A stretch of 64,000 bases of DNA. It comes from Elusimicrobiota bacterium (GTDB taxonomy: Bacteria > Elusimicrobiota > Elusimicrobia > F11). The notes beneath the pieces were generated by a model. The model was not told the origin of the DNA. It made no database searches and was given only the letters and a program-made list of their open reading frames with translations. Position numbers and translations under genes: made by a program. The stretch spans positions 96,001-160,000 of the forward strand of contig JBGAON010000003.1 in NCBI GenBank assembly GCA_044221725.1, in the 5' to 3' direction. Positions within the stretch are counted from its first letter, which is position 1. Each line of letters begins with the position of its first letter. Shown here piece after piece: positions 9,188 through 12,742 of the stretch.

Positions 9188-9206
9188 ATTGAAATAGTAT
9201 TTCAAT
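9188..9206. promoter_or_regulatory. Fur-family operator (perfect 9-1-9 palindrome) next to a sigma70 -35 element
   Basis: ATTGAAATA-G-TATTTCAAT, with TTGACA at 9213-9218; precedes metal-related genes and dps. Confidence 0.7.
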
Positions 9207-9359
9207 AAGTTATTGACACGTGGTGGCCACATTTTCTATATGGCATGCGGCCGTGAGCAGCGCATGGATATTTTCTCCTGTGTTGATCGCCCGCTGCCGG
9301 AGGGGAACAGCCACCCCTCCGGTTATAATTTGAAAAATTAAATCATTAAGGAGATATTA

Positions 9360-10551: not shown

Positions 10552-10929
10552 ATGAAGACTCTATTCCAAATTTTCCTCCTGACGGCCATCATTGTTGGGT
10601 CAAGCCCAGTTTCAATGATTGTGGGTCCAGCAAATCAGGAATGTTCGATGTGCGGGCACGCTTGTTGTTGTCCGGAGATTTGCGCGTTGAAGCGTGCCGC
10701 GCTTCGCGCTCGCTGCAAACGGGATTTGTGCAGGATCGGAGCCTCTCATTCATTCGGAATGGGCGCGACCGACCAACCGTCAACGCGTGTGGACTCCCCG
10801 CTCGCCGTTTTGAACGCTGCGGCGTTAAAACCATCCATGGAATTTGCGCGCGCAACTTATCAATCGAATTCCTTCGGTTCACTTACTCCCGAAAATATTC
10901 TCACTCCTCCGCCAAGAGTTCTTCTTTAA
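10552..10929 (+). CDS. Cys-rich small exported protein with C-terminal TPPPR; candidate CutF/CruR-like leader
   Basis: Hydrophobic N-terminus; CSMCGHACCCPEIC plus two more Cys; ends ILTPPPRVLL; lies directly upstream of a His/Cys-rich barrel gene. Confidence 0.65.
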   Translation: MKTLFQIFLLTAIIVGSSPVSMIVGPANQECSMCGHACCCPEICALKRAALRARCKRDLCRIGASHSFGMGATDQPSTRVDSPLAVLNAAALKPSMEFARATYQSNSFGSLTPENILTPPPRVLL

Positions 10930-11013
10930 CTCCAATCTATCGTTAACGTCATTTAAATTCGTTCGATCGTCTTTGGATCAAACGATTGGTTTATTTTTTT
11001 TTCTGGAGGATTT

Positions 11014-11994
11014 ATGAAAAGGTTCATTTCTGTTTTAGCCGTATTTTTATCGATCACCGCGCCGCTATTCGCGAGCTGTGGATCGGCGTCATGCCCAATT
11101 GATATTTATTCGATGGATCGCACCGAGAAGGGATTCGTGCGGGTCGACTATTCCTATGAGTATATCGACCAGAATCAACCGCGCATCGGACGGCAAGCGG
11201 CCGCGGTCGGTGAAATTCGCGGTCACCATGACGAAGTTTACACGCTGAACCAAACGCAACGACTTGGAATTGATGTGGGGCTTGCGTCGCGTTGGAATTT
11301 GCAGTTGGTGCTGCCGTTTGTTCACCGGGAGCACGATCACATTCATCATCACATGGGAGCGAATGTGAACGAGAGTTGGAATTTTAATGGCATGGGCGAC
11401 CTGACTCTGTTGAATCGCATCGGCTTGAACACGCCAGCGAGTCCGGCATCGCCGTATCTTGCGGCGATCATCGGCGGCGTGTTGCCAACGGGGCGTGAGC
11501 AAGCCCAAAATGCCGATGGCGATGACGCCGAGATCGGGATTCTGCCAGGCAAAGGTGCGTATTCTCTTATTTTGGGCGTGTCCGAGTCTCAGTCTTTCAA
11601 AGCCAAGACGTTAAACGGGCTGTACGCGCGCGTGCCGATTTTTGTGAGCTCGACATACCAGTGGAACGGCAAAGGCACCGATGATTATCGTGTCGGAGAT
11701 ATTTGGCTCGCAAACATCGGCGTCACGTATCCGTTGCTGCCCAGGCTCGGTTTTATAAACCAGTTGAACTTTCGTGTAAATCTGCGGGATGACAAAGGGA
11801 ACACGCGGGAAGAAGTCGAAAAGACTGGCGGCAGCTATTTGTATTTCAGCCCAGGAATTCAATTGACGTTTGCCGAAAACCTCTGGTCTTATATGATTGT
11901 GCAGCTGCCGTTGTACCAACGCGTGAACGGAATTCAGCTGACGTCCGATTCAAATTTCTTGCTGGGCATGTCGTACAAATTCAGCGCATTGTAA
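11014..11994 (+). CDS. His/Cys-rich outer-membrane transporter-like beta-barrel (putative metal channel)
   Basis: SD GGAGGA; signal peptide then SCGSASCP; GHHDE; HREHDHIHHH; GMGDL and LPTG motifs typical of SphA/phenol-MetA-like channels. Confidence 0.75.
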   Translation: MKRFISVLAVFLSITAPLFASCGSASCPIDIYSMDRTEKGFVRVDYSYEYIDQNQPRIGRQAAAVGEIRGHHDEVYTLNQTQRLGIDVGLASRWNLQLVLPFVHREHDHIHHHMGANVNESWNFNGMGDLTLLNRIGLNTPASPASPYLAAIIGGVLPTGREQAQNADGDDAEIGILPGKGAYSLILGVSESQSFKAKTLNGLYARVPIFVSSTYQWNGKGTDDYRVGDIWLANIGVTYPLLPRLGFINQLNFRVNLRDDKGNTREEVEKTGGSYLYFSPGIQLTFAENLWSYMIVQLPLYQRVNGIQLTSDSNFLLGMSYKFSAL

Positions 11995-12008: not shown

Positions 12009-12485
12009 ATGAAGACGAACATTGGAATTGGCGAAAAAGAGCGGATGGAAGTTGTGAAGATTCTGAACCGGAATTTGAGTGACTTGTATGTTCTTCTGAC
12101 GAAGACTCGCAACTACCACTGGAATGTGGTGGGGCCTCGCTTCAATGACTTGCACAAGTTTTTCGATGAACAGTATGAACAATTAAACGAAGCCATTGAT
12201 GAGGTGGCGGAGCGTGTAAGAAGCCTTGGCGGAAAAACGGTCGCGACACTTAAAGAATTCTCGCGGCTGACACGGTTAGAGGAACAGCCGGGCAAATATC
12301 CGCCGGCGGATCGTATGCTGGCACGCTTACTGGAGGATCACGAGCAGGTTATCCGAACTTTGCGCCAAGATGTGGATGACACCAACGAAAAATATCATGA
12401 TGTCGGCACGAGTGATTTTTTAACCGGGCTAATGGAGTCTCATGAGAAAATGGCATGGATGCTAAGGTCCTTTCTCGAAAAATAA
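12009..12485 (+). CDS. dps: DNA starvation/stationary-phase protection protein (ferritin-like)
   Basis: NYHWNVVGPRFNDLHKFF, DEVAERVRSLG and HEKMAWML motifs. Confidence 0.97.
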   Translation: MKTNIGIGEKERMEVVKILNRNLSDLYVLLTKTRNYHWNVVGPRFNDLHKFFDEQYEQLNEAIDEVAERVRSLGGKTVATLKEFSRLTRLEEQPGKYPPADRMLARLLEDHEQVIRTLRQDVDDTNEKYHDVGTSDFLTGLMESHEKMAWMLRSFLEK

Positions 12486-12742
12486 AAACGCTTCGCTTAG
12501 TATTAGCGCTGCTTGCTTGTGCGTCCATTGTCACCCATCTGGGGCATGCGGACGCCAAGCACGCGCGTCTTACCGATAACGACTGCACAATTTGTCACGC
12601 ACTTACCTCGTCGGATATCTCGCACGATGTTGGTTTGGGTCCGCGGATGGTTTCCTGGGAAACGGCATTTTTTGATGTTCCATTCGTTTCTTTTTCCGCG
12701 TCTTTATCGCTAACCTTTCCTCGCGCGCCTCCCACCGTTTAA
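12455..12742 (+). CDS. DUF2946/CruR-like leader protein with CxxC and C-terminal RAPP
   Basis: Hydrophobic segment, HxxHxxxxH, DCTICH, ends PRAPPTV; the start overlaps the dps 3' end and is uncertain. Confidence 0.75.
   Translation: MDAKVLSRKIKTLRLVLALLACASIVTHLGHADAKHARLTDNDCTICHALTSSDISHDVGLGPRMVSWETAFFDVPFVSFSASLSLTFPRAPPTV

Follow-up and report, generated by a model that had tools for sequence, protein, structure and literature searches.

Analysis of a 64,000-nucleotide (nt) stretch from an Elusimicrobiota bacterium (assembly GCA_044221725.1, contig JBGAON010000003.1, positions 96,001 to 160,000; hereafter the window) revealed a short open reading frame (ORF) of 125 amino acids (aa) that precedes a gene for an outer-membrane beta-barrel. 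The ORF carries eight cysteines and ends in TPPPRVLL. It belongs to a real, unannotated protein family and is most likely the leader of a new family within the known copper-sensing CutF/CruR type of switch. The main new result is (i) a strict ruler of 60-61 residues between the cysteine cluster and the terminal prolines, and (ii) one sensor module reused on different transporters. As far as the accessible text of the papers cited here goes, the reports on CutF and CruR leave open by what means a metal bound across the membrane alters stalling, and suggest that the distance from the motif to the stall may be critical. The family is a natural length series, in which the tether is held to about one residue despite drift in its interior, and in related barrel leaders the fixed length is shorter; this makes the idea of a force acting at the translocon directly testable.

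The leader and its target comprise the following features, all on the forward strand.

10552..10929 (+): leader ORF, 125 aa, of the unannotated eight-Cys, PPP-tail family (sequence; 41 relatives)
10552..10620, end approximate (+): probable Sec signal region with a Lys and a 12-residue hydrophobic core (sequence; helix over residues 2-16 in the AlphaFold2 model)
10642..10731 (+): Cys cluster, residues 31-60, CxxCGHxCCCPxxC-x10-C-x4-C, the putative sensor (family conservation)
10732..10902 (+): tether, unconserved and Cys-poor, of fixed length (61 residues from the last Cys to the last Pro)
10870..10950 (+): C>G bubble (27 C, 8 G), a candidate Rho-loading stretch overlapping the stall site (composition; family-wide synonymous G depletion)
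10903..10917 (+): Thr-Pro-Pro-Pro-Arg codons, the putative stall site (P120 and P121 invariant)
10905..10910 (+): anti-Shine-Dalgarno (anti-SD) sequence UCCUCC within the Thr-Pro-Pro codons (pairing probability 0.92-0.99)
10930..10934 (+): weaker back-up anti-SD, CUCCA, directly 3' of the stop codon (computed pairing)
10959..10985 (+): hairpin in the spacer, AU-rich and carrying a C.A mismatch, about -8.5 kcal/mol (folds; absent from the terminator scan output)
10990..11002 (+): T-rich run, TTTA plus T9, directly 5' of the SD, a possible 30S standby site (run not conserved)
11005..11010 (+): Shine-Dalgarno (SD) sequence GGAGGA of the barrel gene (sequence)
11014..11994 (+): outer-membrane beta-barrel of the FapF/COG4313 (PF13557-like) fold, 326 aa (model; fold search)

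A first-pass annotation of this DNA, made from the letters alone, had listed the ORF, its eight cysteines and TPPPRVLL tail, the positions of TCCTCC and GGAGGA, the CGSASC and HREHDHIHHH stretches of the barrel, and the T-run; all of these were borne out.

A leader family with a fixed cysteine-to-proline spacing

The cysteines of the leader occupy residues 31, 34, 38, 39, 40, 44, 55, and 60, and the prolines residues 119-121 of 125, within the bounds of at most 150 aa in length and a PP inside the last 15 residues. Neither Pfam nor NCBIfam gave a meaningful match for this or any other leader tested, and none of the 10 candidates from a word-based homologue search with the leader alone was real; the relatives came via synteny and a four-row profile. 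The motif CxxCGHxCCCPxxC is common to the leader, a paralogue in the same genome, and two other barrel leaders, and the four-sequence profile retrieved 41 representatives among 1.84 billion proteins, 40 of them with the PP tail. Conservation is restricted to the hydrophobic N-terminus, the Cys cluster, and the PPP. Across the 40 rows, C38, C39, C40, P41, C44, C60, P120, and P121 are invariant, and C31, C34, G35, H36, and C55 are kept in at least 90%; Thr precedes the PPP in 33 of 40 rows, and Arg or Lys follows it in about 32. Eight cysteines are present in 28 of 40 members, seven in 6, and nine or ten in 6. Since the Cys motif varies synonymously at the DNA level across seven loci, it is a protein-coding feature.

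The spacing is far more regular than the sequence around it. The last cysteine of the cluster stands 58-62 residues before the last proline in 40/40 representatives (mean 60.5, standard deviation 1.0), while the inner linker, from CCCPxxC to the last Cys, spans 7-38 residues (22.6 +/- 7.4). The profile was seeded with four rows all at the spacing of 61, which could bias the representative set; 12 matches whose best-scoring stretch left out the tail are also at 58-61. Among 37 leaders collected by synteny (36 of barrel genes and the paralogue), the 45 residues ahead of the last Pro hold Cys at only 7 of 1665 positions; 31 of these leaders have Cys at 49-56 residues before it, and the remaining 6 at exactly 61. 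In the leader itself, the last Pro follows the CxxC by 87-90 residues and the last Cys by 61.

According to published measurements, about 50 extended residues reach from the peptidyl transferase center to the periplasmic exit of SecYEG, disulfide-stabilised folding at this exit pulls on an arrest peptide (PMC7513700), and a larger periplasmic domain folds at about 70 residues (10.1101/2021.02.06.430026). In CruR, 45 residues separate the two motifs, a distance that is important (PMC9426467). Taken together, the fixed spacing and these distances suggest that the cluster would be complete in the periplasm, just outside SecYEG, as the ribosome reaches the prolines.

The same module is found upstream of different transporters. 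In a search of 393 genomes of the class, the profile matched six, one of them by a weak match broken by stops. Seven intact family loci were identified in five genomes: three head the barrel, and four head TonB-dependent receptors. One of the receptors is OprC-like and aligns through the ACPNRMD stretch of OprC, which we take to hold the copper site of that protein. Two others, tested against solved structures, are YncD/PqqU-like, one of them followed by a weak PepSY_TM match. The receptor headed by the paralogue could not be shown to be CrtA, its best solved matches being YncD/PqqU. The OprC-like and YncD-like targets point to copper uptake. At one of the receptor loci (L122:13318-13575, genome G002), an almost perfect and very long inverted repeat, perhaps the insertion of a repeat element, takes up the spacer between the family leader and the TonB-dependent receptor; the leader tail can still reach the SD in the minimum free energy (MFE) fold.

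The first-pass annotation had proposed a cis-acting CutF-like leader and as its check had asked whether, in ORFs upstream of homologous barrels, the Cys cluster and the proline tail are conserved while the middle varies. Such leaders were indeed found, and the proposal is well supported. When a single rule was applied throughout, 46 of the 64 barrel loci with 600 nt or more of upstream sequence (not de-duplicated) had a leader-like ORF. The same rule picked out 11 of 679 genes of the genome, seven of them resembling real leaders, and 1 of 129 non-barrel genes in the barrel loci. Most clades of the barrel tree contain leaders, with Cys patterns that differ from clade to clade. The barrel loci were collected from 61 relatives, a phylum sample of 401 genomes, a genome collection, and metagenomes. 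The initial 113 loci were reduced to 83 by removal of 11 duplicates or own-genome extras, 14 loci without the barrel N-terminus, and 5 without a usable start. A loose filter (upstream ORF with terminal PP) retained 62 of these and a strict one 57, of which 41 remained after de-duplication; in the strict set, one locus (L054) was added by hand and contig-cut ORFs were kept. At least two plausible leaders (L042, L092) and a degenerate one (L034) escaped the filter.

The barrel model has a predicted local distance difference test score of 93.8, and its closest folds are FapF and a COG4313 channel (PDB 4rl8, 5o65; TM-score 0.6-0.64, 14-18% identity); profile comparison also points to FapF. The barrel itself does not match PF13557, which is matched by 23 of 47 close homologues (E <= 0.001) and carried by the nearest ESM Atlas clusters. 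C22 and C27, which form an N-terminal C-x4-C, as well as E74, H107, and H109, are invariant across 94 homologues. The fold is shared with the COG4313/FapF channels; the present subfamily differs by the invariant C-x4-C and His residues and is usually leader-linked. Among the papers listed for COG4313 or Phenol_MetA_deg with copper, judged by their listings, none gave a sign of a metal role for the barrel family; the leader linkage is a functional lead, metal-regulated transport, for this uncharacterised PF13557-like subfamily.

The AlphaFold2 model of the leader contains two helices and no tertiary fold (predicted template modelling score, pTM, 0.28), with the tether as a low-confidence coil, and this low-confidence model gave no match in a fold search. 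The ESM Atlas neighbours of the leader are unnamed clusters and one DUF6769 cluster (0.93; 114 shared features), a lead that was not used. A single metatranscriptome study (three runs, assembled contigs) covers portions of both leader and barrel at depth 2-8; two of its contigs end at 10898 and 10902, and a contig from a run of unrecorded kind extends to 11061. Such coverage and ends are no evidence of expression or of a 3' end.

Computed pairing of the proline codons with the downstream Shine-Dalgarno sequence

The leader and the barrel gene are separated by 84 nt. TCCTCC at 10905-10910 consists of the last base of the Thr codon and the Pro codons CCT CC, and in a fold of 10895-11025 all six SD bases pair with it at the high probability listed above. 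Once the Pro codons are excluded from the fold, CUCCA pairs with 11004-11008 at about 0.8. The computed cost of SD opening is 8.4 kcal/mol, and 4.8 kcal/mol with a ribosome placed on the Pro codons (8.7 at a control position); the corresponding means over 38 loci are 11.8 and 9.6 kcal/mol (control 11.5). In shorter-window MFE folds, the SD pairs with the PPP codons in six of the seven family loci.

Any Pro-Pro run can spell an anti-SD. At the leader locus, fold z-scores against shuffles are not exceptional (-1.4, -0.7, -1.9, and +0.2 in four windows), and the RNA features alone are not above chance; the ORF architecture is far above it. Across the 41 de-duplicated loci, 33 tails pair with the ribosome-binding site (RBS) better than their synonymous recodings do, 13 of them at p < 0.05. 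The codon CCT, which before another Pro gives CCTCC, is used at 30 of 64 non-final tail prolines, vs 5 of 41 final ones, 40 of 335 in the leader body, and 15 of 86 in ordinary PP runs from these loci (p = 1.4e-4). Exchanging RBSs among the loci weakened their pairing with the tails (residual -2.7, 27 of 36; four control windows, -0.9 to +0.3). The p-values of the CCT and swap tests are inflated by kinship and base composition. The anti-SD design is thus best described as a family tendency that is clean at the leader locus, with no proven universality. Among the matches listed in our literature search, judged by title and the start of the abstract, an anti-SD within the stall codons was undescribed.

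The tails are also C-rich: C-G skew is 0.37 vs 0.24 expected by synonymous recoding (39 loci), and G depletion in the family increases over the last 25 codons. Selection for an anti-SD and for a Rho utilization (rut) site cannot be fully separated by composition. If a transcriptional layer exists, it is likelier to be of the Rho type than an intrinsic terminator, because of the C27:G8 composition at 10870-10950 and the presence of Rho in the genome. A C>G bubble carries the rut site of CruR (PMC9426467), in which copper sets off Rho-dependent termination.

Proposed mechanism and alternatives

These observations can be arranged into a mechanism in which an exported, cis-acting arrest peptide reads copper as a folding force and keeps the barrel ON when the metal is scarce. 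The hydrophobic signal region would bring the ribosome to SecYEG. When the ribosome stands at Thr-Pro-Pro-Pro, the 61-residue tether would have just put the last of the eight cysteines into the periplasm; this spacing is observed, and its meaning follows from the published distances. With little metal, the cluster would fold loosely and pull weakly, and the ribosome would linger on the Pro codons. According to the folding computed for the leader locus, the lingering ribosome would cover the anti-SD and the C-rich stretch, open the barrel SD, and keep Rho off, so that the barrel is ON. In the presence of copper, the cluster would fold against the mouth of the translocon and free the chain, and the ribosome would depart; the anti-SD would then pair with the SD, Rho may load, and the barrel would be OFF.

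We put the probability of this whole mechanism at about 50%, its components being of different strength. The ORF is very probably a cis-regulatory arrest leader, and the signal is probably metal rather than thiol redox. Given a metal signal, copper is a rather likely choice, and we lean to the ON-when-scarce polarity. Copper and this polarity were chosen because the classifiable targets of the family are importers in cruR-type contexts and because the genome has four heme-copper oxidase subunit I genes; the importers oprC and bfrG are stated to be repressed by their own metal (PMC9426467). The first-pass annotation saw here a sensor independent of the other leader of the window, with a different ligand set. 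Independence was upheld, as profile similarity between the two is limited to the signal region (probability 11%). The ligand claim stood in part: the Cys architecture does differ, but the metal may still be copper, because the OprC-like receptor headed by the family retains the copper-site motif.

The odds are modest because the PPPR tail is that of CutF, a system of opposite polarity, because the cysteines suit disulfides, and because the neighbours are mixed. Several results weigh against the mechanism. The resemblance of the tail to the CutF PPPR, taken by analogy, would suggest the CutF polarity. At the leader locus, the tail/RBS duplex is at p = 0.32 against synonymous recoding, ordinary PP runs of the genome also favour non-final CCT about twofold (233/1472 vs 102/1348), and two control windows of the RBS swap test were nominally significant. 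Placing the ribosome at the stop codon rather than on the prolines gives a similar opening cost (mean 9.2 vs 9.6 kcal/mol), and a drop of more than 1 kcal/mol was computed in only 21 of 38 loci, vs 10 of 38 at the control position. In the other six of the seven family loci, folded with 120 nt of upstream context, pairing of the PP codons with the SD is 0.00-0.10, and the opening cost falls by no more than about 1 kcal/mol or rises. By the common rule, 18 of 64 barrel loci have no leader; several of these barrels sit right behind another gene or a different regulatory-looking motif. Finally, the neighbours of the barrel loci (NikR/CbiM, a NicO-like gene, MgtE, TerC, resistance-nodulation-division (RND) efflux, MbnP, and CusF) span nickel, cobalt, magnesium, TerC, efflux, and copper, and do not point to a single metal.

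A broader joint reading, doubtful when taken as a whole, would make the leader a portable trans-membrane force sensor with its own ruler. It combines the following tentative parts: (i) the eight-Cys knot would close only once its last Cys has cleared SecYEG, 60-61 residues from the active site of the ribosome; (ii) the periplasmic copper or thiol-redox state would be read as a pulling force; (iii) one 12-base stretch would serve as stall sequence, anti-SD, and Rho-loading core; (iv) the module would be swapped among barrel, OprC-like, and YncD-like targets; and (v) leader families with different clusters would have settled on rulers of about 49, 53, and 61 residues.

The strongest alternative to the copper-scarcity mechanism, in our view unlikely, gives the leader the polarity of CutF: metal-free disulfide folding together with EF-P would release the pause, and copper or another thiophilic metal would block folding, prolong the stall, and turn the barrel ON. 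The TPPPR tail matches the CutF PPPR, for which this model was published (10.1101/2025.02.05.636593), and the even number of eight cysteines in 28/40 members suits four disulfides in a genome with DsbA-like genes. CusA/CzcA efflux operons lie behind other leaders of this genome, and a Dps-like gene behind the barrel. The classifiable family targets argue the other way, since they are TonB-dependent importers, one of them OprC-like, for which repression by metal would be expected.

That the leader senses thiol redox is improbable. Closure of a disulfide by the last Cys would then supply the pull, and poor oxidation would keep the stall and induce the target. Periplasmic folding stabilised by disulfides does pull on an arrest peptide (PMC7513700); a disulfide knot would also fit the CCC run and the count of eight, and oxidation could be required for the invariant C22/C27 pair of the barrel. 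However, H36 is kept in at least 90% of the family, 6 of 40 members have seven cysteines and another 6 have nine or ten, and the identifiable targets are importers of metals or cofactors, not thiol-redox genes.

Quite improbable, in our view, is a leader product that acts free in the periplasm, as a metal chaperone or a metallothionein-like partner to the barrel, with the PPP tail and RNA pairing being incidental. In its favour, eight conserved Cys plus a His could be ligands for several ions, no RNA statistic at the leader locus reaches significance, and 6 of the 7 family loci are without a clean computed switch. Such a protein gives no reason for an unconserved tether fixed to +/-1 residue, for the invariant terminal prolines, or for the synonymous codon bias of the tail, and the leader model is without a tertiary fold (pTM 0.28).

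An intrinsic terminator switched by the leader ribosome, as the first-pass annotation had it for the spacer hairpin and T-run, is very improbable and was rejected as the main mechanism, as the terminator scan did not report it, the T9 is unique to this locus, and terminator-like spacers are no more frequent at leader loci (6/50) than in the background (9/70). The T9 is the longest T-run before any of 679 genes of the genome (the other 40 leader loci have 0-6), it is preceded by the -8.5 kcal/mol hairpin, and under a lenient score 4 of the 7 family spacers contain terminator-like elements. Nevertheless, the element is AU-rich, mismatched, and followed by TTGG, and a control terminator in the window is stronger (-16.7; tail score 5.2 vs 3.9). 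The nested stems proposed for the spacer are present, but the inner one (10959-10968 / 10976-10985) has a C.A mismatch, its right arm overlaps that of the outer stem at 10984-10985, so that the two stems cannot fully coexist, and the MFE fold takes other registers.

Known systems and genomic surroundings

Three types of known leaders are closest to the one described here. CutF of Rhodobacter capsulatus (cutFOG; 10.1101/2022.11.11.516240 = PMC9973294 and 10.1101/2025.02.05.636593) is similarly a short exported ORF with a Cys motif, a C-terminal PPPR, a hidden SD, and a spacer below 100 nt, export of our leader being predicted. By the CutF-like rules of Ozturk et al. (2023), as far as stated in the accessible text, the leader has the length, the terminal PP, the Cys/His motif, and the same-strand gene within 1000 nt. 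Differences are seen in the Cys motif (CxxxC vs the eight-Cys cluster), the spacing (about 45 residues between the motifs vs 61 from the last Cys to the last Pro), the stem-loop (described as intergenic in CutF vs the main anti-SD computed inside the Pro codons), the target (multicopper oxidase vs PF13557-like barrel), and the polarity, which in CutF is EF-P-dependent and opposite to ON-when-scarce (10.1101/2025.02.05.636593); the stall in CutF is induced by copper and sensitive to EF-P, and CutF acts in cis only. No link in sequence family between CutF and the leader was detected. Elusimicrobia, PF13557, and Acidobacteria are unmentioned in the main text and three supplements of PMC9973294 and in three supplements of PMC9426467. 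The leader may fall in one of the 29 published CutF-like clusters (File S1), a point that bears directly on its novelty. Among the accessible papers, none on Elusimicrobia and an arrest peptide was found.

CruR (DUF2946) of Bordetella pertussis (PMC9426467), for which arrest was shown in PMC12992588, also has a fixed spacing from the Cys motif to the di-proline and a C>G bubble over the end of the ORF. Like CruR, the present family heads TonB-dependent receptors, including an OprC-like one and a pair of a receptor and a PepSY_TM-like protein. The stall motif is RAPP in CruR vs TPPPR in the leader, and R[AG]PP ends only 2 of 41 barrel leaders. The CruR spacing is about 49 residues to the last Pro (CxxC 45 +/- 2 before the stall motif) vs 61 here, which is long enough to cross the membrane, and CruR needs no signal; CruR is the first gene of its operon, whereas the leader is third in its gene run. 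PF11162 (DUF2946) matched neither the leader nor any of 35/35 leaders, nor anything in the genome. By these sequence comparisons (no PF11162 match, no RAPP, a different spacing), the leader is not a member of DUF2946, and this Pfam family misses many such leaders. Leaders of the SecM/VemP type (PMC10987492) share with the scheme proposed here an exported chain, a stall near the C-terminus, and a stalled ribosome that frees an SD; their input is translocon activity, whereas the input here would be folding of the Cys cluster, with outer-membrane transporters as targets.

In the window, the gene order is a DUF6662 gene, a small cytochrome c gene, the leader (starting 15 nt after the cytochrome c gene), the barrel, a Dps-like gene, a second leader, and a ZnuA/ABC cluster. 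Two of these features are listed below.

12009..12485 (+): Dps-like ferritin-domain gene (PF00210), 14 nt 3' of the barrel and probably co-transcribed
12455..12742 (+): the other leader of the window (CxxCH, RAPP tail), unrelated in sequence, which heads a gene for an unannotated exported protein and the ZnuA/ABC cluster

This other leader has CruR-like spacing, with Cys 46 and 49 residues before the last Pro, and does not match PF11162; its computed SD opening cost goes up, not down, with a ribosome on the prolines. A scan of the region with Rfam gave no riboswitch or other family, the only hit being a single tRNA elsewhere in the window, and an RNA-only sensor of a known family was rejected on this ground.

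Upstream of the gene run, a near-perfect 17-base palindrome at 9189-9205 lies immediately 5' of a TTGACA (about 9213-9218) before the DUF6662 gene. We take it to resemble a Fur-family box; the genome contains two weaker copies elsewhere and one Fur-family gene. The palindrome may place the whole gene run under transcriptional metal control. Between the promoter-like site and the start codon of the DUF6662 gene, a strong G+C-rich hairpin at 9296-9323 is a possible 5' leader structure or terminator.

Some barrel loci show other arrangements. The leaderless barrels of one clade (L047, L051, L075, L091, and L101) have in common an upstream GCGAC..GTCGC-like inverted motif, presumably similar to a RegA/PrrA site, and in L047 a response regulator adjoins the barrel locus; this clade may have exchanged the leader for transcriptional control. 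In L003 (2546-2842) and L019 (4119-4451), the barrel has no leader, and a leader-like Cys- or His-rich ORF directly downstream heads an efflux gene or a second exported-protein gene. In another clade (L077:3945-4223 and L095:3939-4217), a conserved, exported-looking ORF of 93 aa with Cys and His and without a PP tail is located 3' of the barrel.

The genome carries EF-P, Rho, and DsbA-like genes, and at least seven leader candidates, none of them matching PF11162. Two Cys-rich PP-tail leaders (C1:24644-25030 and C4:37688-37969, both on the forward strand; genome G000) head TolC plus CusA/CzcA-type efflux operons. Two leader-like ORFs in the same genome (C1:162845-163222 on the reverse strand and C5:9710-10123 on the forward strand) end in RAPP and RSPP, respectively, with CxxC 51-56 residues before the last Pro; they head genes for membrane glycosyltransferase-like proteins (PMT_2 plus TPR) rather than metal genes, an unusual class of targets.

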